64,000 nt of DNA, from positions 300-64,299 of the forward strand of contig CALVHI010000001.1 of assembly GCA_944327365.1 (NCBI GenBank). Reading direction: 5' to 3'. Positions within the stretch are counted from its first letter, which is position 1; each line of letters starts with the position of its first letter. This stretch comes from an uncultured Bacilli bacterium (GTDB taxonomy: Bacteria > Bacillota_I > Bacilli_A > RF39 > UBA660). Positions 6,872 through 63,465 of the stretch are shown here, piece by piece. Under the pieces are notes generated by a model. The model was not told the origin of the DNA and searched no databases. It saw only the letters and a program-made list of their open reading frames with translations. A program made the translations under genes and the position numbers.

Positions 6872-7138
6872 ATGAAAGAAGCGACTGGAGAATTAAACAT
6901 GACAGTTGTTACAGTAGTAGCAATCGCAGCCGTAGCAGCATTCTTCTATGCGTTTGTATGGCCAGGCATTCAAAACTCTATTAAAGCTAGTACTTATTGT
7001 GCAATGGCAAATTGTGATGATGGACTAGATAAATGTACATACGTTGATGAAGAAGGAGATACTCAAACGGTAGATTGTACGAATTACTTTTCAGAGAATG
7101 GCGCTGGCGGAAGCGCTGGTGGAAACGCAGCTAGTTAA
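6872..7138 (+). CDS. Small pilin-like protein: MKEATGELN leader, one hydrophobic helix, four Cys
   Basis: Conserved N-terminus MKEATGELN shared with the next gene. TM helix. Cys-rich, Gly-rich C-terminus. Strong RBS AGGAGG. Confidence 0.4.
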   Translation: MKEATGELNMTVVTVVAIAAVAAFFYAFVWPGIQNSIKASTYCAMANCDDGLDKCTYVDEEGDTQTVDCTNYFSENGAGGSAGGNAAS

Positions 7139-7160
7139 TTAAAAACGGAGGATAAGTTAA

Positions 7161-7403
7161 ATGAAAGAGGCAACAGGAGAACTTAATTTAACTGTAATTG
7201 TTGTAACGATAGTGGCTTTGTTGTCCTTTTTTTTCTTTTCGGTAATTTGGCCTACAATCCGAAGTAATTTTTCACAAAATACGAGATGTGATGAGGCAGT
7301 TTGCCCCAAAGCAGGAACAACTCCTCGAAATGGTGAGGCAATCTGTACTTATCGCGATGAAGATGGAACACAGCATGATATTACATGCGCTTGGAAAGGT
7401 TAA
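7161..7403 (+). CDS. Small pilin-like protein, paralog of 6872..7138
   Basis: MKEATGELNLTVIVV... with four Cys. RBS GGAGGA. Confidence 0.4.
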   Translation: MKEATGELNLTVIVVTIVALLSFFFFSVIWPTIRSNFSQNTRCDEAVCPKAGTTPRNGEAICTYRDEDGTQHDITCAWKG

Positions 7404-7418
7404 TTAAAGGTGGTATAA

Positions 7419-7955
7419 ATGAAAGAGGCAATAGGTGGAATATCATTATTTAATATTGTTATTGTCTTTGTTTTACTTTTTGCCGGTTATATCAGCATGT
7501 CAATTAACTATTCTAAGGCATATAATGTTAAAAATGAAATCTTAAATATTATTCGGAATCAAGGAGGAGTATGTACAGCGTCTCAACCCAATAACACCAA
7601 TAATTGTTATAATTTTGCTTCTCAAATCACAGATTATTTTAGAGAAGCAAACTATCGGAGCACGGGTACATGTGACATAGATGAAGGATGGGTTGGATAC
7701 AATCGTGAAGGGCAAATTGATTATAATAATTCTGCTTTTTGTGTGAAAGCAATAAAAGTTAATACAAACTCAGAACTTCCCAATGCCCTATATTATCAAA
7801 TAAAAGTGTTTTATCAATTAGATCTCCCAATTATTAGAAGTGTCTTTGACTTAACCATATATGGAGAAACAGCGAGAATTTATGATCCGAATGAATGCAA
7901 AGACCAAATTGGAGACCCAAGTCGATACCCATGGTGTAGAGGAGTGAGATCATGA
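7419..7955 (+). CDS. TadE-like/pseudopilin-like protein (putative)
   Basis: N-terminus MKEAIGG + hydrophobic helix + FAGYISMSINYSKAYNVKNEI, resembling the TadE N-terminal region. Extracellular Cys-containing domain. Confidence 0.35.
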   Translation: MKEAIGGISLFNIVIVFVLLFAGYISMSINYSKAYNVKNEILNIIRNQGGVCTASQPNNTNNCYNFASQITDYFREANYRSTGTCDIDEGWVGYNREGQIDYNNSAFCVKAIKVNTNSELPNALYYQIKVFYQLDLPIIRSVFDLTIYGETARIYDPNECKDQIGDPSRYPWCRGVRS

Positions 7956-8440
7956 GGAATTCAATTGGAGGAACATGGATTATTCAGCTGATGATCTTAT
8001 TTATACTTTTGTTTGTAGGATTTATGATTTTAACTCTAAATTATTCCCGCTCAGTGAAAATTAAAAATGAAATGATTGATATGTTCGAAAAATACGAAGG
8101 GTTAAATGATACATCTATAGAATTAGTAAACAATTATTTAACTTATTCCACATATAGTACAACAGGAATATGCGTAGAGGAAGGGGAAGATGCAACAGGG
8201 ATCTACGGATCAAGAGATCTATCAAGCTTTTATTTGGAAGAAGCCAAGGAAGGATTAGATTATTATTATTGTGTTAAAAAATATGATGGAGCCAATACAA
8301 CAAATTACTATCAAATTACTATTTTTTATCGTTTTAACTTACCAATTCTCGGTAATATATCAAGTTTTTCAATAAAGGGAAGTACTAGTAACTTTCAATC
8401 AAAAGATAATGATAATTATAAAAAAGCTATAGGAGATTAG
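7952..8440 (+). CDS. TadE-like/pseudopilin-like protein (putative), paralog of 7419..7955
   Basis: MRNSIGG + helix + FVGFMILTLNYSRSVKIKNEM. Start overlaps the previous stop (ATGA). Confidence 0.35.
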   Translation: MRNSIGGTWIIQLMILFILLFVGFMILTLNYSRSVKIKNEMIDMFEKYEGLNDTSIELVNNYLTYSTYSTTGICVEEGEDATGIYGSRDLSSFYLEEAKEGLDYYYCVKKYDGANTTNYYQITIFYRFNLPILGNISSFSIKGSTSNFQSKDNDNYKKAIGD

Positions 8441-8455
8441 AAAGAAGGAATAAAT

Positions 8456-9448
8456 ATGAACGTTATTGTCTCAAATAAATACCAAAACATGTTAGCAACA
8501 CTAGATATAGATGTCATAAAAAGCATTAATGGCGAATTTGAAGCGGAAGAATTAGCAAGTATTTTTACTAACTTCTATTTTAATAAAATGATTATTGATA
8601 TTACGGCGATTAAAGGATATCAAAATATTAAAAACATTCAAAAACTATCAGTAAACTTTGATCCAAGTAAATTAATTCTATTATTAGACGATTCGGCTAT
8701 GGTAAACAGTGGTAGTTATTTATCCGGATTAGTATCAATGGGGATATATAATTTTACTAGAAATATTAACGCTGTAAAATTCTTAATAGATAATCCAAAC
8801 TCATATAAAGATGTAGCTCAATATCATAATCTAAACAATAGTGATGATAAAGTAATAGAATACGATTCATTTACAGGAACAGGAAGTGGAGGGCTTAGAA
8901 TTTTAGGTGTAAAAAATGTTACATCTCATGCAGGCTCAACTACTTTAGTATACATGTTAAAGCGCCATCTAGAAGTAGCATATAATGTTGTAGCCTTAGA
9001 AGTAGATAAAGAAGATTTTAAATATTTAAACGATAAAAGCTTAAAATCAACAACATCACTTGATTTATCTTTTAATATTGCCAATAATCCTGATGCTGAA
9101 GTAATTCTTATAGATTTAAATGATTCAAATCAAGAAAATTTATGCAATGATATTATTTATTTAATTGAACCAGGTTTAATTAAGTTAAACAAAATAATTC
9201 GTCAAGATCGAGATATTTTTGAAAAGCTAAAAGATAAAAAAGTAGTTTTAAACAAAAGTGTTTTAACAAACAAAGATATCAATGATTTTGAGCATGAAGC
9301 TAACACGAAAGTATTTTTTAATATTCCATATTTAGATGATAAAAAAGAGCACGAACAAATCTTAGATGATTTTTTAGTAGCGCTAGGTTTTTCAAGATTA
9401 AACAGCAGTAGTTCTGGAAAAGCTAAATTATTTAACATATTTAAGTAG
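8456..9448 (+). CDS. Degenerate ParA/MinD-like protein (TadZ/CpaE-like, deviant Walker A)
   Basis: ILGVKNVTSHAGSTTLVYMLKRHLEVAYNVVALEVD aligns to MinD VTSGKGGVGKTT...VVIDFD, with the lysine and glycines lost. AEVILIDLND is Walker-B-like. N-terminal ~130 aa are receiver-like. Confidence 0.4.
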   Translation: MNVIVSNKYQNMLATLDIDVIKSINGEFEAEELASIFTNFYFNKMIIDITAIKGYQNIKNIQKLSVNFDPSKLILLLDDSAMVNSGSYLSGLVSMGIYNFTRNINAVKFLIDNPNSYKDVAQYHNLNNSDDKVIEYDSFTGTGSGGLRILGVKNVTSHAGSTTLVYMLKRHLEVAYNVVALEVDKEDFKYLNDKSLKSTTSLDLSFNIANNPDAEVILIDLNDSNQENLCNDIIYLIEPGLIKLNKIIRQDRDIFEKLKDKKVVLNKSVLTNKDINDFEHEANTKVFFNIPYLDDKKEHEQILDDFLVALGFSRLNSSSSGKAKLFNIFK

Positions 9449-9520
9449 TTACTTAATAAAAGTAGCTATTTTTTGTTTTAAAAAGCCTTTGTAGCTGATA
9501 TAATAATATATAAGTGAGGA

Positions 9521-10234
9521 ATGCCTATGAAAATAATCAGTTCAATTCTATTAGTAATATCATCAATTGCTATCATCTTTATAACATCTTATACATTAAT
9601 GCATCAAAAAATAAAAGACACTCAAACAGTAATTAAAATAAAAAGTATTGAGAAAGCTACAAGTAATATGACTACAAATGAATTAAGTGAAACATTCAAT
9701 ATTAATTTAAATGGAAAAAGGCATAGGTTAAAAAATGTTTATAGTTATAATGAAAACACTTTAACACTAACTTTATATTTAGATGGCTTTAAAATATTAA
9801 ATAAAATATTAGAAGAAGAACTAAAGGAAAATAGTATAGAAGAAATATTTAATGAAAAAACATTAAGTTATCCAATAATTGATGAAGAAGATCTTGTTGT
9901 ATTAAAAACTGATAAAAATTATTTATTAGTTAAAATTAGTTCAAATATCCAGAACTTAAAAGAAGAATATTTTGTTTGGAATGATGAAAGAAAAAAAATA
10001 TTAGAAAATATATTAGTTTATGATCAAACTAAGCAATATAAAACAGAAGAAAACATCTTTTATGATAAAGAAAAACAAATATTATCTAAAGTAGAAGATA
10101 ATAAAATATATGTTTTAGAAGAACAAGAAGAAAATGTTTTAGAAGAATATGTATATGAAGTAAAAAAAGATAAAGCAACGAAAGAACTAATCAATACTTA
10201 TATTTTACAAGAAAAAAAGCCCCAAAAGGGCTAA
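9521..10234 (+). CDS. Membrane-anchored K/E-rich hypothetical protein
   Basis: N-terminal TM segment, then a charged low-complexity ectodomain. Last gene of the pilin-like cluster. Confidence 0.4.
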   Translation: MPMKIISSILLVISSIAIIFITSYTLMHQKIKDTQTVIKIKSIEKATSNMTTNELSETFNINLNGKRHRLKNVYSYNENTLTLTLYLDGFKILNKILEEELKENSIEEIFNEKTLSYPIIDEEDLVVLKTDKNYLLVKISSNIQNLKEEYFVWNDERKKILENILVYDQTKQYKTEENIFYDKEKQILSKVEDNKIYVLEEQEENVLEEYVYEVKKDKATKELINTYILQEKKPQKG

Positions 10235-20684: not shown

Positions 20685-21113
20685 GTGAGAAAAATGAGAA
20701 CATTTTACATATTTAATATTAATAAAAGTTTTTATAACTTAATGAAAAACAATCCATATCATTTATTTAAAACAATGGAAGACATTCATAATTTTAATAA
20801 AAATGATGTATCAGTAGCATATGATTTATTTATGCAAATTGTATCTCCATTTGATAAAGGGAAAATAAATAATTTAATTTTTAATGAATGTAAAGATAAT
20901 GACTTTTATACTAAATTTCATAATATACACAGAATTCAAAACAAATATATACCTGAAGATTCTTGCTTAATAGTAAGTAGCGCTTTTCTATTATTAGAAA
21001 GTAATGTTTTAAAACCAAGTTTTTTAACAGAGCTAAAAGAATTAAATAATTTATTTATTTGTGATTTTAAAAATAAAGATTATTTTTGGTTAAATGAACT
21101 TGTTCGCTTGTAA
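20685..21113 (+). CDS. Hypothetical protein
   Basis: 142-aa ORF; no motif. Confidence 0.35.
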   Translation: MRKMRTFYIFNINKSFYNLMKNNPYHLFKTMEDIHNFNKNDVSVAYDLFMQIVSPFDKGKINNLIFNECKDNDFYTKFHNIHRIQNKYIPEDSCLIVSSAFLLLESNVLKPSFLTELKELNNLFICDFKNKDYFWLNELVRL

Positions 21114-21371: not shown

Positions 21372-21398
21372 ACCCAAGTTATTCAAAATACTTGGGAT
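21372..21398. terminator. Bidirectional hairpin between convergent yneF and the XRE gene
   Basis: CCCAAGT tattcaaaat ACTTGGG. Confidence 0.35.
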
Positions 21399-21834
21399 TA
21401 TCTATTTTACCTAAAAGATAGTCAGCAGATATATGATATTTTTTACAAATAGTATAAAGAAAAGGGGTAGCAATAATGGCACGATTACTTTCATAATTGC
21501 CTATTGTTCCCTTAGAAACGTTTAATAATGTTGCTAATTTTTCCTGAGATAGTTTATTTTCTTTCCTAAATTCTTTTAATCTAGCTTTAACAATATTAAG
21601 ATCAATATCCTGATCTACATTTTGATATTGTTTCGTATCTGTTAAACCAAAAATATAATCAAGAGAAACATGAAAATAACTACATAAAAGATTTAAATGC
21701 TTGATAGGAATTATAGTATATTCTTTCTCAAAGTGATTAAAAGTTTGTTTGGTTACCCCAATAATTTGGCCTAACTGCTCCTGCGTTAAGCCATTTCTTT
21801 CTCTTAATGATCTAAGCTGTTTTCCATACATCAT
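21379..21834 (-). CDS. Double-HTH XRE family transcriptional regulator (module A)
   Basis: Two HTH_XRE domains (LTQEQLGQIIGVTKQTFNHFE; LSQEKLATLLNVSKGTIGNYE). Divergent from the downstream surface-protein gene. Confidence 0.8.
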   Translation of the reverse strand: MMYGKQLRSLRERNGLTQEQLGQIIGVTKQTFNHFEKEYTIIPIKHLNLLCSYFHVSLDYIFGLTDTKQYQNVDQDIDLNIVKARLKEFRKENKLSQEKLATLLNVSKGTIGNYESNRAIIATPFLYTICKKYHISADYLLGKIDNPKYFE

Positions 21835-21907
21835 TATATCACCTAAAACAATTTTCTCATACCCAATTTATTATTTTGCAATTAGTATCCTAATAATGAG
21901 AATTTTC

Positions 21908-21976
21908 TTGACTTTTTATCTAGCCCAATTTATAATTTAAATATAAGCTAGGAAACTCATCTATCATAGCTTATAT
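21908..21976 (+). promoter_or_regulatory. Consensus sigma-A promoter (TTGACT-17-TATAAT) plus a 10-bp perfect inverted repeat in the 5'UTR of paralog A
   Basis: TTGACT 21908-21913. TATAAT 21931-21936. ATATAAGCTA (21941-21950) / TAGCTTATAT (21967-21976). The same block recurs upstream of paralog C. Confidence 0.55.
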
Positions 21977-22023
21977 TTACACCTAAATGAATGAAGGTGT
22001 ACTTCACAGAAATGAGGTAAGTT

Positions 22024-23325
22024 ATGAAGTTCGAAGTATTAAAAAGAAGTCATTTAAAAAGAAATATTATCATAGGATTATTTGCAGTTGCTATCATATC
22101 AGCCACTGTTCTTAATTTTACTCAAGCTAAATACAGAGTAACAGAAAGTATACCCCTCATAAATGGAACTATCCATTATACCCCCTATGATTTAAACTTA
22201 GTAGCTATGTATCAACAAGATGAGACAGGTGAATATATAAGCATAGATACAGTACCAACAAGTGGATACACACTAAATGAGAGTGAAAGTTATTGTGAAA
22301 TAAATGATACAAAAGATAATACCATAACGATAGAATATCAAGATGGGAAAGTTAATTTTTTAGGTTTAATGAAAAAGGGAACGAAATGTTATTTATACTT
22401 TGATGAATATCAAGCTAAAGATATAATTCTAGCAGGAAAAGACATTAAAGAAAGAACTAGCTTTAATAGTGTACTTACAACCAATACAAATGGAATAATT
22501 TATCAAGAAGAAACAAGTGATGGAACAACTTATTACTTTGCCGGAGATACAGATGAAAACTGGGTATCTTTTGCTGGATATTATTGGCGAATCATAAGGG
22601 TAAATGAAGATGGATCAATAAGAATAATCTATAATGGAACAAGTACTAGTACAACCGGAAGTGGAACCCAACTACAGACAAGCGCATTCAATAGTTCGCG
22701 TGATAATAACGCCTATGTAGGATACATGTATACATTAAATAATGTCCATGGAACAGGAACAAGTAGTACAATCAAAGGAATACTAGATAATTTCTATAAA
22801 GATCATATCGCTGGAGAATATGAAGATTATATTAGTAAAGAAGCAGGATTCTGTGGAGATAGAACAAGAAGTACAAGTAGTAGTTCACTCAATAATTCAG
22901 GAGGAACGGGAACAACGGTAACCTATTATGGAGCATATATCAGATTAGCAAATAGTTCCAAAAATCCAACGTTTGAATGTAGTGATGAAGCATATGACTT
23001 GTATACCGTACAAGAAAGCAGTAAAGGGAATCATGCCTTAACGTATCCAATCGGCCTCATCACAGCCGATGAAGTAGCTTATGCCGGAGGAGTATGGGCC
23101 ACTAGCAATAGTAGTTATTACCTCTATAATGGAGAGTATTACTGGACCATGTCTCCGAATTACTTTGTTGACAATAGCGCTTGGATGTTGTCTGTGGATT
23201 CGGATGGCAATCTCCGCATCAACTACGCGGATCGCTCGAATGGCGTCCGCCCAGTATTAAATCTGGATGCTGGTGTAACAATAAAATCAGGAAATGGCAC
23301 AGCAGATTCTCCATTTGTAGTCTGA
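22024..23325 (+). CDS. Signal-anchored mosaic surface/secreted protein, paralog A (unknown family)
   Basis: N-terminus MKFEVLKRSHLKRNIIIGLFAVAIIS. Variable block about aa 55-135. Conserved blocks ILAGKDI.ERT.F...DGTTYYFAGDTDENWVSFAGYYW.IIR.NEDGS, GFCGDRT, TFEC, GLITADEV.YAGG, YWT.SP, GVRPVLNLDAGVT. Three paralogs in the window. Confidence 0.7.
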   Translation: MKFEVLKRSHLKRNIIIGLFAVAIISATVLNFTQAKYRVTESIPLINGTIHYTPYDLNLVAMYQQDETGEYISIDTVPTSGYTLNESESYCEINDTKDNTITIEYQDGKVNFLGLMKKGTKCYLYFDEYQAKDIILAGKDIKERTSFNSVLTTNTNGIIYQEETSDGTTYYFAGDTDENWVSFAGYYWRIIRVNEDGSIRIIYNGTSTSTTGSGTQLQTSAFNSSRDNNAYVGYMYTLNNVHGTGTSSTIKGILDNFYKDHIAGEYEDYISKEAGFCGDRTRSTSSSSLNNSGGTGTTVTYYGAYIRLANSSKNPTFECSDEAYDLYTVQESSKGNHALTYPIGLITADEVAYAGGVWATSNSSYYLYNGEYYWTMSPNYFVDNSAWMLSVDSDGNLRINYADRSNGVRPVLNLDAGVTIKSGNGTADSPFVV

Positions 23326-23523: not shown

Positions 23524-23908
23524 ATGAGTTAAATAATTATATGTCATAAAGAATAAAATTATAAGGTATTCTAATATATTTAGATGATTGATAAGCAAGA
23601 TGAAATAAAGTTAAACCAGTGTTGAATAAAGACATGAATCTGATCTTCTTGCCTTTATCTATTTTATGAGTTTTAATTTTAATATTTTTATATATTCTTG
23701 TATTTTTACTATAATCAGCACCTAGAATAGTCATATGTGCAAAACAATAGCCATATATCTAATTATTTAGAAACAAAGTTTTTATAACTAAATTCCCAGC
23801 ATATTTTAAACGGGAACTTAAATTTAAAATTAAAACTTTACATTTTTTTCTTGATTTTCACATATAGATATGTTAGACTTATAAATAGAATAAAAGGTGG
23901 TGTTAAGG

Positions 23909-24775
23909 ATGGATTTCCTTGATAAGTTATATAGTAGTAATTATTTTGGTATTGGTTTATTTGCAGTCATTGCATTTTTAGTAGTAACGTTTTTAATTGT
24001 TCTCTTTTTTGGTAAAAAAGATGAAAAGAAAAGAAAATTAGAAGTAACACAAAATCTAGAAGCTACCGACACATTTAAAGAAACGACCAAAGAAGTACCG
24101 GTTGAAATACCAACTAATCCAGAACCTGTAGCGCCTATTGATTTAGACCCAGTATCTCCACTCCCAGTGGAAGAAAAAACTGAACCAGTTATTTCAGAAA
24201 ATAAAGAGCCATTAGAAACGGTTATTCCAGTTGCTCCTGTTGCACCAATAAATGAAGAATACGTTGAAAATTTAACTGTAGAAGAGCCAGCAAAAGAAGA
24301 GGTAAAACCGGTAATTGATCCAATATCACCAATTATTAATGAAGAACCTGTAGCAGAACCAGTAAAATTAGAACCTACTAAAATAAATATTCCAATTGAA
24401 CCAGTTAATCCAGTAATAAACGAAGGAGTAACACCGGTAATAAAAGAAGAAGAACCAAAACTTCAAATTAACGAAGAACCTATATTAAATACATATTATA
24501 AACCAATCGAAAAAACAACTTCAGATCCAATTAAAGTACCAAACATTGATTTTGATTCATTAGCTAAGTCAATATCTAAAGAATTAGATGAATTAGAAAA
24601 TGATACTAAAAAATATGAAGAAATAAAAGTAACACCAATTTCCGAAGTAGCTAAAACAGAAACAAATACAGTAAAGCAACCAGAAACATTTAGTTCTGTT
24701 TATGTAAAAGAGGAACCAAAAACAGAAATTGAACTACCAAAAAGAATCGATTTACCTGTTAAAAAAAATGATTAA
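23909..24775 (+). CDS. Membrane-anchored Pro/Glu/Val-rich repeat protein
   Basis: N-terminal TM (FGIGLFAVIAFLVVTFLIVLFF), then degenerate EPV/PVxP repeats. Start ATG 23909 after AAGGTGG. Confidence 0.55.
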   Translation: MDFLDKLYSSNYFGIGLFAVIAFLVVTFLIVLFFGKKDEKKRKLEVTQNLEATDTFKETTKEVPVEIPTNPEPVAPIDLDPVSPLPVEEKTEPVISENKEPLETVIPVAPVAPINEEYVENLTVEEPAKEEVKPVIDPISPIINEEPVAEPVKLEPTKINIPIEPVNPVINEGVTPVIKEEEPKLQINEEPILNTYYKPIEKTTSDPIKVPNIDFDSLAKSISKELDELENDTKKYEEIKVTPISEVAKTETNTVKQPETFSSVYVKEEPKTEIELPKRIDLPVKKND

Positions 24776-35897: not shown

Positions 35898-35974
35898 GGG
35901 CGCTTAGCTCAGTTGGTTAGAGCACCTGCCTTACAAGCAGGGGGTCATAGGTTCGAGTCCTATAGCGCCCACCA
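35898..35974 (+). tRNA. tRNA-Val (anticodon TAC)
   Basis: GGGCGCT acceptor stem, D-arm GCTCAGTTGGTTAGAGC, anticodon loop CTTACAA, T-arm GGTTCGAGTCC, ACCA. Confidence 0.9.
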
Positions 35975-35985
35975 TTGTTTTTTTT

Positions 35986-36061
35986 GCCGACATAGCGTAA
36001 CTGGCAGCGCAACTGACTTGTAATCAGTAGGTTGGGGGTTCGACTCCCTCTGTCGGCACCA
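35986..36061 (+). tRNA. tRNA-Thr (anticodon TGT)
   Basis: GCCGACA acceptor stem, anticodon loop CTTGTAA, T-arm GGTTCGACTCC, CCA. Confidence 0.85.
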
Positions 36062-36070
36062 TTTAATTAT

Positions 36071-36154
36071 GGGGAGATAGCGAAGTGGCCAAACGCGGCA
36101 GACTGTAAATCTGTTCCTTCGGGTTCCATGGTTCGAATCCATGTCTCCCCACCA
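36071..36154 (+). tRNA. tRNA-Tyr (anticodon GTA), long variable arm
   Basis: GGGGAGA acceptor stem, anticodon loop CTGTAAA, long variable arm, T-arm GGTTCGAATCC, CCA. Confidence 0.85.
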
Positions 36155-36163
36155 CTTTAATAT

Positions 36164-36239
36164 TGCCTCGTAGCCAAGTGGTAAGGCATCAGACTTTGAC
36201 TCTGACATTCCGCTGGTTCGAACCCAGCCGAGGCAGCCA
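36164..36239 (+). tRNA. tRNA-Gln (anticodon TTG)
   Basis: TGCCTCG acceptor stem, anticodon loop CTTTGAC, T-arm GGTTCGAACCC, CCA. Confidence 0.85.
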
Positions 36240-36244
36240 TACTT

Positions 36245-36320
36245 GGTTCGCTAGCTCAGTAGGTAGAGCATTTGACTTTTAATCAAAGGGTCGAGGGTTC
36301 GAATCCCTCGCGAGCCACCA
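36245..36320 (+). tRNA. tRNA-Lys (anticodon TTT)
   Basis: GGTTCGC acceptor stem, D-arm GCTCAGTAGGTAGAGC, anticodon loop CTTTTAA, T-arm GGTTCGAATCC, CCA. Confidence 0.9.
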
Positions 36321-40214: not shown

Positions 40215-40739
40215 TTATATATTCATTTTTTCTTTAATTTCTTGTACTTTCATTTTAATCTTTTTATCTCTCTTAATATTAGTATCAATATTACCAACAA
40301 TATAATCAGCACTAACACCAAAAGTTTCACATATCTGTTTTAAATCAGCAGTACTAATCATCATTTTCCCAATCTCATAATAACTAATACTACTTCTTTT
40401 TGTATCAATCTTAGAAGCAAACATTTCTTGAGTTAAACCTGCCTTTTTTCTAATCTCTTTTAATCTAAGCCCAATCTTTTTTAAATCCATATTTTCAATA
40501 TAATGATATGAATACTGATCAATAAAATCAATAATTCCTAACAAATAATCAATAGGAACCTGATATAAATAAGCAAGCTTAATAATCTGCCTTAAAGATA
40601 CATTAGTAATTCCATTCTCCCAGTTATTGATTAAACTACGTGATACATGTAGCATTGATGCTAATTCTTGTTGAGTATAACCAAACTTATCTCTTAAATG
40701 ATAAATCCTTTGTTCAATAATTGTTATATTTTTGTCCAT
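40215..40739 (-). CDS. Double-HTH XRE family transcriptional regulator (module B)
   Basis: Two HTH_XRE domains (YTQQELASMLHVSRSLINNWE; LTQEMFASKIDTKRSSISYYE). Divergent from paralog B. Confidence 0.8.
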   Translation of the reverse strand: MDKNITIIEQRIYHLRDKFGYTQQELASMLHVSRSLINNWENGITNVSLRQIIKLAYLYQVPIDYLLGIIDFIDQYSYHYIENMDLKKIGLRLKEIRKKAGLTQEMFASKIDTKRSSISYYEIGKMMISTADLKQICETFGVSADYIVGNIDTNIKRDKKIKMKVQEIKEKMNI

Positions 40740-40997
40740 ACCAACAGCTCACTTTATAAATAAAATCAATAACATTGTTTCATACTATTATAAATCGTAC
40801 TAATAATTGACACTAATACTCACTTAATGACACTAAAAATCACAAAATAGTTGAATTTTATTCAACAATACTGTATACTAGAAATATATCATAGACAAAT
40901 ATATGAGAAATAAAACAAGAAGTTTTGATAAGTTTTGTCGAATCACATGTATTATAAATAAATATATGCTATGATACTCAAGGGAAGAGGGAAGTCT

Positions 40998-42269
40998 ATG
41001 GAATTTGAAGTATTAAAAAGAAGTCATCTAAAAAGAAATATTATCATAGGATTATTTGCAGTTGCTATCATATCAGCCGCTGTTCTTAATTTTACCCAAG
41101 CTAAATACCGAGTAACACAAAGTATACCACTTGTAAACGGAAAAATAAACTATAATCCGGGAGATATTATTATATCTGCTTATTATAATGATGAACTATT
41201 AGCAACATTCCCAACCAAAGATAGTGAATATGCTGTAGAAAACATAACTTGTGATAATAACACAACAGCAACATTTGATAAAGATAAATGGCAAATAAAT
41301 ATAACAAACTTAGTAACAAAAGGAACAAAATGTGATGTGACATTTGTAGAAAAAGAATTAGCAAGTGAATCAATATTAGCCGGAAAAGACATTCAAGAAA
41401 GAACAGATTTTAGTACAACACTTACAACCAATACAAATGGAATAATTTATCAAGAAGATACAAGTGATGGAACAACTTATTACTTTGCCGGAGATACAGA
41501 TGAAAACTGGGTATCCTTTGCTGGATATTACTGGCGAATTATCAGGATTAATGAAGATGGATCAATAAGAATGATCTATAATGGAACAAGTACTAGTGCT
41601 ACCGGAGGTGAAACCCGACTACAGACAAGCTCATTCAATTATTCGAATGGCAATAATGCCTATGCAGGATACATGTGTACTTTAAATAGTGTCCATGGAA
41701 CAGGAACAAGTAGTACAATCAAAGGAATAGTAGATAATTTCTATCGAGATCAAATCGCTGGAGAATATGAAGATTATATTAGTAAAGAAGCAGGATTCTG
41801 TGGAGATAGGACCTCAACAACAACAAATGGTGGGGCACCAAATGATACAGGAGGGATAGGAACAACAACAACTTATTATGGAGCAAGATATCGGTTAGAC
41901 ACAAATAAAACACCAACGTTTGAATGTAGTGATGAAGCAAATGATTTGTATACCGCACAAGAAAGCAGTAAAGGTAATCATGCTTTAACGTATCCAATTG
42001 GACTCATCACAGCCGATGAAGTAGCCTATGCCGGAGGAGTATGGGATACTTATAATAGTAGTTATTACCTATATACCAGACAAAGCTACTGGACTATGTC
42101 TCCGTATAATTATAGCGGTGGTGCTAACGTGTTTCTTGTGTCTCACAATGGCGACCTCGGTAACTGGGGCGTGAGTAACACGGTTGGTGTGCGCCCAGTA
42201 TTAAATCTGGATGCTGGTGTAACACTAACCGGAAGTGGAACAACATCTGACCCTTATAGAGTAAATTAG
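40998..42269 (+). CDS. Signal-anchored mosaic surface/secreted protein, paralog B
   Basis: MEFEVLKRSHLKRNIIIGLFAVAIIS... Same conserved blocks as A and C with a distinct variable block. ATG 40998 after GGGAAGAGGGAAG. Confidence 0.7.
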   Translation: MEFEVLKRSHLKRNIIIGLFAVAIISAAVLNFTQAKYRVTQSIPLVNGKINYNPGDIIISAYYNDELLATFPTKDSEYAVENITCDNNTTATFDKDKWQINITNLVTKGTKCDVTFVEKELASESILAGKDIQERTDFSTTLTTNTNGIIYQEDTSDGTTYYFAGDTDENWVSFAGYYWRIIRINEDGSIRMIYNGTSTSATGGETRLQTSSFNYSNGNNAYAGYMCTLNSVHGTGTSSTIKGIVDNFYRDQIAGEYEDYISKEAGFCGDRTSTTTNGGAPNDTGGIGTTTTYYGARYRLDTNKTPTFECSDEANDLYTAQESSKGNHALTYPIGLITADEVAYAGGVWDTYNSSYYLYTRQSYWTMSPYNYSGGANVFLVSHNGDLGNWGVSNTVGVRPVLNLDAGVTLTGSGTTSDPYRVN

Positions 42270-61514: not shown

Positions 61515-61988
61515 CTATAAATACTTAGGACAATCAATTTTTCCTAAAAGATAATCAGCGCTAACATGATATTTACTACAAATCATATAAAGAAAAGGAG
61601 TACCAATTAAACTTTTACCATTTTCATATATACTCCATGTTGGTTGATCAATATGTAAGAACATAGAAATTTGCTGTTGAGTAAGTTTTTTTTCTTTTCT
61701 AAATTCTTTTAATCTTTTTGAACATAATTCCAAATCAAAGCCTGATTTTACTTGATAAGATTGATTCACAGAGCCAAAAAGGTAATCTATACTTAATTTA
61801 AAATAATCTGCAAATGAAATTAATCTTTTAAGAGGAATAATATTATTATTTGATTCCCACATAGCATAACTACTTCTAGTAACTCCCAATATTTTAGCTA
61901 TATCGTTTTGACTCATACTATTTTGTAATCTTACTTCTTTAATTCTTTTTGTGCTAAACATAATTTTCACCTTTTTAAATTGTCTCAT
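61515..61988 (-). CDS. Double-HTH XRE family transcriptional regulator (module C)
   Basis: Two HTH_XRE domains; C-terminal half closely related to the module A regulator (TPFLYMICSKYHVSADYLLGKID). Confidence 0.8.
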   Translation of the reverse strand: MRQFKKVKIMFSTKRIKEVRLQNSMSQNDIAKILGVTRSSYAMWESNNNIIPLKRLISFADYFKLSIDYLFGSVNQSYQVKSGFDLELCSKRLKEFRKEKKLTQQQISMFLHIDQPTWSIYENGKSLIGTPFLYMICSKYHVSADYLLGKIDCPKYL

Positions 61989-62035
61989 TTATTAAAGAAA
62001 ATAAAAATTATATGTCAGAAATATCTATATTTTTC

Positions 62036-62104
62036 TTGACTTTTTATCTAGCCCAATTTATAATTTAAATATAAGCTAGGAAACTCATCTATCATAGCTT
62101 ATAT
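62036..62104 (+). promoter_or_regulatory. Consensus promoter TTGACT-17-TATAAT plus 10-bp inverted repeat, duplicate of the module A control region
   Basis: TTGACT 62036-62041. TATAAT 62059-62064. ATATAAGCTA 62069-62078 / TAGCTTATAT 62095-62104. About 125 bp nearly identical to 21901-22023. Confidence 0.55.
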
Positions 62105-62151
62105 TTACACCTAAATAAATGAAGGTGTACTTCACAGAAAAGAGGTAAGTT

Positions 62152-63465
62152 ATGAAATTTGAAGTATTAAAAAGAAGTCATTTAAAAAGAAATATTATTA
62201 TAGGAGTATTTGCAGTATTCATAATAAGTGCATGTATATTAAACTTTACTCAAGCTAAATATAGAGTAACAGAAAGTATACCCCTCATAAATGGAACCAT
62301 CCATTATACCCCCTATGATTTAAACTTAGTAGCTATGTATCAGCAAGATGAGGCAGGTGAATATGTTGAGATAGAACAAATGCCTAGTAGTGGTTATACT
62401 ATCAATACAGAAGAAAGTTATTGTACTGTAGATGGCAATAAAGATAATACAATAAGCTTATATACAAACGAAAACGGAGAACATGTTATAGCCAAATTAA
62501 AGAAGGGAAGTAAGTGCTATTTATATTTTGATAAATGTCAAGCTAAAGATGTAATCCTAGCAGGAAAAGACATTCAAAAAAGGACAGATTTTAGTACGGT
62601 ATTAACAACAAATACTGATGGAATAATTTATCAAGAAGAAACAAGTGATGGAACAACTTATTACTTTGCCGGAGATACAGATGAAAATTGGGTATCCTTT
62701 GCCGGCTATTATTGGCAAATCATCAGAATTAATGAAGATGAAAGCGTTCGTTTAATTTATGCAGGCACAAGCCCTTCAATGGGCAATACAGATGACCAAA
62801 TAAGTGCAAGTGCATTCAATAATACAGTTAGCGACAATGCACATATAGGATATATGTTTGGAAGTTTGAATGCGTCAAACTATAATTTGACGCATTCAAA
62901 CATAAATAGTAGTACTATAAAAGCCGTTATAGATAATTGGTATCAAAAAAATATATTAAATGCAAACTATGATCGGTATATTAATACCGAAGCAGGATTC
63001 TGTGGGGATAGAACTCCATACGTTTATAGGTCTGGGCTTTATATATCAGGAGGAGGTACTGGAACAATAGCGACCTATTATGGAGCCTTTGTAAGATTAA
63101 ATATAAATAAAATCCCAACGTTTGAATGTAACAGTAGCAATGACTTGTATACAGTAGATGAAAGTAGTAAAGGATTAACCTATCCAGTCGGACTCATCAC
63201 AGCAGACGAGGTGGTTTATGCGGGGGGAACGTACAAACAAACTAATAATAGTTTTTATCTTAACACAGATAGTACATATTGGACTTTATCACCGTTTGAA
63301 TACGATGGAGACAGTTCCAGAATATTTTATGTGTCAGAAGGATACTTAAACGATTGGCATGGCTCTTATGATGCTTTTGGCGTCCGTCCGGTTATAAACC
63401 TGGATGCTGGTGTAACAATAAAATCTGGAAATGGCACAGCAAATTCACCTTATAAAATATCTTGA
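62152..63465 (+). CDS. Signal-anchored mosaic surface/secreted protein, paralog C
   Basis: First ~65 codons almost identical at DNA level to paralog A. Distinct variable block. Conserved C-terminal blocks through GVRPVINLDAGVTIKSGNGTA. Confidence 0.7.
   Translation: MKFEVLKRSHLKRNIIIGVFAVFIISACILNFTQAKYRVTESIPLINGTIHYTPYDLNLVAMYQQDEAGEYVEIEQMPSSGYTINTEESYCTVDGNKDNTISLYTNENGEHVIAKLKKGSKCYLYFDKCQAKDVILAGKDIQKRTDFSTVLTTNTDGIIYQEETSDGTTYYFAGDTDENWVSFAGYYWQIIRINEDESVRLIYAGTSPSMGNTDDQISASAFNNTVSDNAHIGYMFGSLNASNYNLTHSNINSSTIKAVIDNWYQKNILNANYDRYINTEAGFCGDRTPYVYRSGLYISGGGTGTIATYYGAFVRLNINKIPTFECNSSNDLYTVDESSKGLTYPVGLITADEVVYAGGTYKQTNNSFYLNTDSTYWTLSPFEYDGDSSRIFYVSEGYLNDWHGSYDAFGVRPVINLDAGVTIKSGNGTANSPYKIS

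Follow-up and report, generated by a model that had tools for sequence, protein, structure and literature searches.

Three copies of a two-gene module in an uncultured Bacilli bacterium pair XRE-family regulators with predicted exported proteins that carry lectin-like domains and two variable segments

The window analysed here is a 64-kb stretch of contig CALVHI010000001.1 (assembly GCA_944327365.1, positions 300 to 64,299) from an uncultured Bacilli bacterium. It contains three copies of a module in which an XRE-family regulator gene on the minus strand lies divergent from a plus-strand gene for a large protein with a predicted domain of C-type-lectin-like fold (CTLD). Modules 1, 2 and 3 occupy 21379–23325, 40215–42269 and 61515–63465, and all three are co-oriented. 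XRE1 (21379–21834, minus strand) encodes 151 amino acids (aa) with two tandem helix-turn-helix (HTH) domains of type HTH_3 (E=2e-25); and CTLD gene 1 (22024–23325, plus strand) encodes 433 aa, with a signal peptide or anchor, a small beta domain and a putative enlarged CTLD of DUF6273 type. XRE2 (40215–40739, minus strand; 174 aa) is a double-HTH protein matched by HTH_3 in 2 stretches (E=9.6e-33) and is divergent from CTLD gene 2 (40998–42269, plus strand; 423 aa); XRE3 (61515–61988, minus strand; 157 aa, double HTH_3) is divergent from CTLD gene 3 (62152–63465, plus strand; 437 aa). The start of CTLD gene 2 is placed at 40998, and not at the mechanical start of the open reading frame (ORF) at 40971, on the basis of homologue and paralog alignment and the ribosome-binding site. 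The gap between each XRE gene and its divergent large gene measures about 160–260 bp. The large proteins (423–437 aa) are 64–69% identical in pairs, and all three contain the conserved blocks DGTTYYFAGDTDENW, GFCGDRT, GLITADEV, YWTxSP and GVRPV. An earlier note on this DNA had described both the three-fold two-gene architecture, which is borne out by the ORF listing, the HTH_3 matches and the alignments, and the conserved blocks, all of which were found. The duplicated unit is the 2-kb gene pair, since the DNA similarity between modules spans from the 3′ end of the XRE gene to the stop codon of the large gene. With tblastn, the window yielded no additional module copy, whether complete or fragmentary.

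Sequence libraries are nearly silent on the large proteins. No family was matched in NCBIfam or PADLOC; PHROGs gave a single weak match, for copy 3 (phrog_9958, unknown function, E 7e-4); and the family profile matched no PDB chain at E up to 10. The sole Pfam signal is DUF6273 (PF19789), with 21.1, 23.1 and 19.4 bits for the three proteins (E 7.5e-5 to 1e-3) against a gathering threshold of 23.5 bits. A precomputed PF19789.7 annotation is present on copy 2 (identical protein P0014) and on many close homologues. The AlphaFold2 model, built on 89 homologues, has a mean predicted local distance difference test score (pLDDT) of 88 and a predicted template-modelling score of 0.75, and comprises a helix (residues 11–34), a disordered stretch (35–49), a small beta domain (about 55–128) and a globular domain (131–433, pLDDT >90). 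The globular domain has the core CTLD topology, and the motif series (hydrophobic)LxxxE(E/V) ... (W/Y)W(L/T)xSP ... GVRP(A/V) is present in the large proteins. Foldseek comparison with viral models (BFVD) returned phage 'DUF6273 domain-containing' proteins. The blocks GLITADEV, YWTxSP and GVRPV are the counterparts of the LLSxEE, WWLRSP and GVRPA series, which is typical of the DUF6273 domain. The model and the phage matches thus point to the conserved blocks as core motifs of a divergent, enlarged DUF6273-type domain, and the large domain is placed, at the level of modelled fold and motif, as a double-size CTLD of this type. The earlier view that the blocks belong to no characterised family therefore holds for the sequence libraries and not for the fold; the profile and structure searches that it had suggested for the conserved C-terminal region reached DUF6273 at fold level, with the Pfam score below threshold.

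The N-terminus of the large protein argues for export. In copy 1, a hydrophobic helix (aa 11–34; 22054–22128, plus strand) is preceded by Lys/Arg residues, which predicts an N-in/C-out topology, and ends in T33-Q-A35, a putative signal-peptidase site at which T-x-A provides positions −3 and −1 ahead of the invariant Ala35. Across the 89 homologues A35 never varies, and T33, K36 and Y37 hardly do. A cleavable signal peptide and a signal anchor fit these features equally well; of the earlier description as 'signal-anchored', the conserved export signal stands and the anchor is uncertain. The first 49 residues are 84–92% identical between paralogs, far above the adjoining beta domain. Residues 35–49 are among the most conserved of the family (entropy 0.6–0.7 in the 89-sequence alignment) and are predicted to be disordered in both models (pLDDT 41–46).

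Distant relatives with the same lectin head carry a classical SipW/TasA-type signal at the N-terminus (GGTYAWF, GITFAYF and similar). Among these, P0161 reaches 19.2 bits with NCBIfam TIGR04088 (cut-off 19 bits) and matches Peptidase_M73, the camelysin N-terminus, at E=4.5e-7. Another, P0034, shows 68% identity to copy 1 across 87% of its length but has a SipW-type N-terminus and an extra domain. As these N-termini differ despite the same head, N-terminal modules have been exchanged during the evolution of the family. The window proteins themselves match neither TIGR04088 (E up to 1) nor Peptidase_M73 (E up to 0.1), and the window contains no SipW-like peptidase motif. Homology of their N-terminus to SipW-type signals lacks statistical support and is kept as a lead at motif level: hhalign aligned only part of the beta domain (65% probability) and the signal region was not significant.

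Whether divergence between the copies is localised or uniform had been set beforehand as the deciding point, and it proved strongly non-uniform, with identities of 17–92% by region. Variable module 1 (22171–22413, plus strand) is the small beta domain, aa 50–130, in which identity is 31% between copies 1 and 2, 59% between 1 and 3 and 19% between 2 and 3. Variable module 2, hereafter the variable region (VR; 23158–23241, plus strand), encodes a 28-aa beta-hairpin, bounded by YWTMSP and GVRPV, at the C-terminal end of the lectin-like domain; the corresponding segments of copies 2 and 3 lie at 42105–42185 and 63295–63378 (plus strand), and the VR has 27–28 aa across the three copies. It is 17–24% identical in protein and 38–52% in DNA between copies. 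The lectin core retains 81% (1 vs 2), 59% (1 vs 3) and 58% (2 vs 3), and the C-terminal tail 61–79%. The earlier note had described one hypervariable cassette, a paralog-specific block of about 80 aa. That block is indeed variable, but it is not copy-specific, as copies 1 and 3 have one type and copy 2 another; and there are two variable segments, the more variable of which, the VR in the C-terminal lectin head, had been overlooked.

In the 89-sequence alignment the VR has the highest entropy, and AlphaFold2 models it as well-defined beta-hairpins at the C-terminal end of the lectin fold. Its length ranges from 26 to 36 aa in 64 relatives. Among 239 relatives, VR identity is about 0.35 for core identities of 60–90% and about 1.0 for cores above 97%, with exceptions in which a core identity of 97% accompanies a VR identity of 33% and a different VR length. 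Within one 90%-identity cluster, alleles are identical over about 380 aa and then differ in the VR by many substitutions and indels. Orthologues from different samples, on the other hand, keep a VR that is 100% identical with cores drifted to 78–92%. This pattern, switch-like and then kept, indicates occasional whole-segment replacement and not continuous hypermutation; and because orthologues retain the VR while the core drifts, it gives the impression of a fixed determinant of each paralog's specificity and not of a continuously mutating epitope. The variable region of diversity-generating retroelements (DGRs) in phage DUF6273 proteins is located at the same C-terminal position (PMC10743442, PMC11792537, bioRxiv 2024.10.15.618418). 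Natural alleles with cores 97–100% identical and a wholly different hairpin, length included, were found for P0027 versus P0140, P0137 and P0145 (one 90% cluster) and for L013; they are ready material for a comparison of specificity.

Recombination has made mosaics of the three copies. DNA identity is 96–100% between copies 1 and 3 over 21901–22200, from the promoter to about codon 60, and 90–97% between copies 1 and 2 over 22437–22836 and 22980–23070. In a Sawyer-type permutation test of runs at polymorphic sites, p<2e-4 was obtained for both pairs. The identity runs switch partner, so that the closest copy to copy 1 changes near the linker between the two domains. The large protein had been called a mosaic before, and the permutation test confirms that it is one by recombination. 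Programmed antigenic or phase variation, with ON/OFF control, is not supported. No ORF resembling a reverse transcriptase (YxDD), no template repeat or fourth VR copy and, by tblastn, no silent partial copies occur in the window. At the modules there is no invertible promoter, no adjoining recombinase gene and no relevant tandem repeat; homopolymer and dinucleotide tracts are absent from modules 1 and 2, and module 3 has only T8, A7 and G6. No evidence was found for the phage-receptor decoy that the earlier note had also suggested.

Modules 1 and 3 share one type of control region. A predicted sigma-70-like promoter of CTLD gene 1 (21908–21936, plus strand), recognised by consensus match and conservation, consists of TTGACT, a 17-nt spacer and TATAAT. 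Directly after the −10 box lies a large inverted repeat with 16-nt arms, TAAATATAAGCTAGGA and TCATAGCTTATATTTA (21938–21979, plus strand), a candidate mRNA hairpin or operator; and just 5′ of the ribosome-binding site, at fixed spacing, lies a small palindrome, TGAAG-N5-CTTCA (21992–22006, plus strand), which may likewise be an operator or a hairpin. The promoter and leader of module 3 are at 62036–62134 (plus strand), with the inverted repeat at 62066–62107. The two control regions differ at 3 of about 130 aligned positions, and their promoters and large inverted repeats are identical. Module 2 has a different control region, with its own type of promoter and leader and without the inverted repeat.

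The same promoter and leader arrangement precedes about 15 other loci with 82% column identity, while the proteins encoded there share only about 50% identity with copy 1; the promoter-leader unit is thus more conserved than the genes it precedes. The large-repeat pattern, expected 0 times in the window, occurs there 2 times; 8 other loci (L009, L010, L016, L023, L036, L049, L064 and L079) have it at the same position, about 50–80 nt upstream of the start codon. A spacer of variable length (12–16 nt) between invariant arms fits a hairpin at the 5′ end of the mRNA better than a rigid dimer operator. All pairs in the arms being invariant, no covariation was found in them; the single-sequence fold of the leader gave a modest z of −2.5 against shuffles; and Rfam has no family for the leader, only tRNAs being detected in the window. 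The arms of the small palindrome are invariant, with a variable centre, in 11 closely related leaders, and in the divergent L083 one arm base differs.

In all three XREs, HTH_3 exceeds its gathering threshold (77–112 bits, two domains each). The regulators are only 31–44% identical in pairs, far more diverged than the large proteins. Of the related human-gut metagenome loci that are full-length and include upstream sequence, 40 in number, 32 carry a divergent gene of the XRE-type HTH class 50–470 bp upstream, some with one HTH domain and some with two, and this pairing marks a conserved functional unit. The regulator beside each copy, as first described, is thus a pairing that extends well beyond this genome. 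XREs that adjoin the conserved leader have a common second HTH domain and a C-terminal ADYLLGKIDNPKYL tail. To judge from the gene arrangement and the usual mode of action of XRE proteins, the XRE most likely represses or gates the adjacent gene. Other arrangements were also observed: in L004 (3476–6974), tandem paralogs stand behind a two-component system instead of an XRE; and in L025 (1969–3988), modules are back to back, with the second XRE and leader directly 3′ of the first gene.

A full HMMER scan at E <=1e-3 placed 6,201 clusters (50% identity) in the wider family. The 290-aa head occurs 1–12 times per protein, in proteins of up to 4,905 aa, and in some of them it accompanies DUF285, ALK/LTK glycine-rich or camelysin-type N-terminal regions; such multi-head and combined architectures are typical of adhesins. 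The few labelled relatives are uncultured Bacilli from human or animal gut ('Mycoplasma sp. CAG:776', Candidatus Caccenecus, 'uncultured Bacilli bacterium'). The best 80 metagenome loci are all from human-gut assemblies, often with several per contig, and IMG/VR holds only two loci, against more than 560 in gut metagenome contigs. No family name was found in the databases searched. Among the 120 close homologues listed, none has a source name, and the only name met was 'unknown', on one cluster member. The papers found to mention DUF6273 do not describe the family of the window proteins. The hosts are uncultured Bacilli with small genomes, widespread in the human gut, whose interactions with the host and with other microbes are almost unstudied, and this large unnamed family, apparently present mostly in several copies per genome, is a leading candidate for what they use in adhesion or recognition. 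A formerly anonymous ORF family now has a fold placement, two exchangeable putative specificity segments and a conserved unit of regulator, promoter and leader.

Each module stands alone amid unrelated housekeeping genes. Module 1 is flanked by a UPF0154 gene and a gene of unknown kind; module 2 by deoD and clpB; and module 3 by ylxM and the end of the window. The GC content of the three lectin-like genes is 0.34–0.36, compared with a window average of 0.284, and at third codon positions (GC3) it is 0.21–0.24, compared with 0.16–0.19 in neighbouring housekeeping genes. Directly 3′ of module 1, a 292-aa ORF (23897–24775) without a Pfam match has an N-terminal transmembrane helix and a long low-complexity region rich in Pro, Glu and Val. 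A 142-aa ORF at 20685–21113 scores 28.5 bits (threshold 26) with the Pfam model SirA, the sporulation inhibitor of replication, which is noteworthy in an apparent small-genome gut bacterium. Five tRNA genes are clustered at 35898–36317, and one more lies on the minus strand at 2640–2723. At 6872–8440, four small ORFs in succession (88, 80, 178 and 162 aa) have a common N-terminus, MKEA(T/I)G..., ahead of a hydrophobic helix and look like prepilins or pseudopilins; neither they nor the adjacent ORFs (8456–9448 and 9521–10234) match Pfam, and the region 6872–10234 may be an unannotated pilus or secretion-like cluster.

We propose, with somewhat better than even confidence, that the modules encode a family of lectin-like binding proteins that are exported, diversified by recombination and each paired with an XRE regulator of its own. 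The large protein would be exported through its N-terminal signal sequence and then be held by an N-in/C-out anchor or cleaved after T-x-A35, displaying the small beta domain as a 'stalk' and the double-size DUF6273-type domain as a head. It would bind outside the cell, perhaps a glycan or a protein on host mucus, food particles or other microbes, and its ligand specificity would be set by two surface segments, the stalk domain and the 26–36 aa C-terminal hairpin, the latter at the site mutated by DGRs in phage DUF6273 receptor-binding proteins. The whole 2-kb module would have been duplicated to new chromosomal sites and then reshaped by segmental recombination (gene conversion) between paralogs, for which two conserved stretches may serve as homology tracts, the 5′ end (promoter, leader and first 50 codons) and the lectin core. 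The outcome would be a repertoire of fixed, paralog-specific specificities in this genome and in thousands of relatives in uncultured human-gut Bacilli, with each copy separately controllable through a divergent XRE that would act on its neighbour from the shared intergenic region. From the 'regulated, diversifying surface-protein system' of the earlier note, this proposal keeps the exported protein, the lectin-like fold, the XRE pairing and the mosaic copies, and drops programmed switching.

Several points weigh against this proposal. The C-type-lectin-like fold includes enzymes too, such as FGE-sulfatase. The PF19789 match, besides being below threshold, covers only the last ~50 residues (profile positions ~116–171). 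The closest solved relative, the N-terminal domain in the IgA metallopeptidase described below, has no assigned function and is dispensable for catalysis. The recognition helices of the XREs differ among loci with an invariant leader, which makes binding of the XRE to the conserved inverted repeat doubtful. Heterogeneous selective constraint could add to the patchy identity; it is insufficient alone, because the closest-copy relation changes between the 5′ and 3′ halves.

The C-terminal position of the hairpin in a DUF6273 C-type-lectin fold, where TvpA, Mtd and gut-phage DUF6273 targets have their DGR variable regions, could suggest that a DGR at another place in the genome acts on the large proteins. 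We consider this highly unlikely: the window has neither the reverse-transcriptase ORF nor a template repeat; VR lengths vary and alleles contain indels, neither of which A-directed mutagenesis produces; the VR DNA is just 38–52% identical between copies, and orthologues retain identical VRs as their cores drift; and GC3 is only slightly raised at the GVRP codons, which gives no signal like an initiation-of-mutagenic-homology site. A prophage or defence remnant, in which a CI-like repressor accompanies a membrane protein for superinfection exclusion or receptor masking, seems similarly remote in probability. The XREs do match phage repressor families (phrog_8, phrog_3; RstR) and PADLOC's generic HTH models, phage receptor-binding proteins commonly contain DUF6273, and two relatives lie on IMG/VR contigs. 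Against this, PADLOC (PADLOC-DB 2.0) has zero families for the three large proteins and PHROGs the one weak match to copy 3; the modules stand singly between housekeeping genes; no integrase or phage structural gene was recognised in the ORFs adjoining the modules, most window ORFs being unannotated; the two viral loci face the far larger number in gut contigs; and the GC content is just mildly raised.

The conserved XRE adjacency also agrees with a signal-transduction unit, in which a membrane-anchored lectin-like sensor signals to its partner XRE, like the RsgI anti-sigma factors whose ectodomains bind carbohydrate. Conservation between paralogs is unusually high in the short cytoplasmic N-terminus MEFEVLKRSHLKRN and in the stretch that follows the helix, and the distant relative L004 stands behind a two-component system. 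However, the cytoplasmic part has merely ~13 residues; the XREs consist of two HTH domains, without a sensor or partner-binding domain; the T-x-A site suggests that the N-terminus is cleaved off; and a secreted or adhesive role fits better with same-head relatives that have cleavable SipW-type signals or are giant multi-repeat proteins. Such a unit is quite improbable. A polymerising, fibre- or pilus-like subunit is unlikely as well. After cleavage the segment KYRVTESIPLINGTIHY would act as a donor strand, as in TasA and BsaA, the lectin heads being displayed and the XRE being analogous to SinR. In favour of it are residues 35–49, highly conserved yet disordered, and the genuine SipW-type signals of P0161 and P0034; moreover, residues 28–38 of TasA form the donor strand, the tasA operon is under the XRE-type repressor SinR, and a donor-strand model exists for BsaA. 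The spacing of T-x-A followed by x-[FY] resembles the TasA site. Nevertheless, when the two N-terminal types are aligned profile to profile, the signal region gives no significant match, the TIGR04088 and Peptidase_M73 models miss the window proteins, and the window has no motif of a SipW-like peptidase. A fuller form of the proposal of recombination-diversified binding proteins, in which hairpin and stalk cassettes are exchanged by gene conversion along a retroelement-free route, each gene is gated by a private XRE and a TasA-like donor strand possibly yields lectin-decorated fibres, is rather unlikely when taken as a whole.

Comparison with known systems places the family beside several others. 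The N-terminal domain in the Thomasclavelia ramosa IgA metallopeptidase (IgAse/ThomasA; PDB 9qa6), annotated as DUF6273, is 18% identical to the window protein and is without the long loop of the Ca2+/carbohydrate-binding type. In IgAse this domain is N-terminal in a sortase-anchored seven-domain protease with a D/H/C zinc site, whereas in the window it is the C-terminal head of a 430-aa protein without a protease domain. The C-terminal domain of Legionella Lcl (Pfam Lcl_C, formerly DUF1566) has about 120 aa, forms a trimer on a collagen-like stalk and binds glycosaminoglycans; the window domain has about 300 aa. As in tapA-sipW-tasA with SinR of Bacillus and sipW-bsaA of Clostridium perfringens, an XRE-family regulator adjoins the gene for a secreted matrix or surface protein, and distant relatives of the window family carry true SipW-type signal peptides. 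Unlike TasA and BsaA, the window proteins miss the TIGR04088 and camelysin models and are without a TasA-like jellyroll, and no sipW lies nearby.

The vsp, vsa and vlp families of Mycoplasma are multigene families of small, low-GC genomes, in which a conserved 5′ untranslated region and signal sequence precede divergent mature parts. The window genes resemble them in that promoter, leader and first 49 codons are 84–100% conserved. However, vsp, vsa and vlp encode tandem-repeat lipoproteins at one locus and are switched by site-specific inversion or by slippage of promoter homopolymers, whereas the window genes lie about 20 kb apart, do not encode lipoproteins, have each their own promoter and XRE, and showed no switch element. 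The variable proteins of DGRs with a C-type-lectin fold, namely Treponema TvpA, Bordetella phage Mtd and the gut-phage DUF6273 'tentaclins', differ from the window family, which has no reverse transcriptase or template repeat in the window and whose variation includes length changes and is all-or-none between lineages. To judge from these sequences, diversification appears to proceed by paralog recombination rather than by mutagenic retrohoming, and the family thus offers a natural comparison with the DGR-driven diversification of the same structural site.

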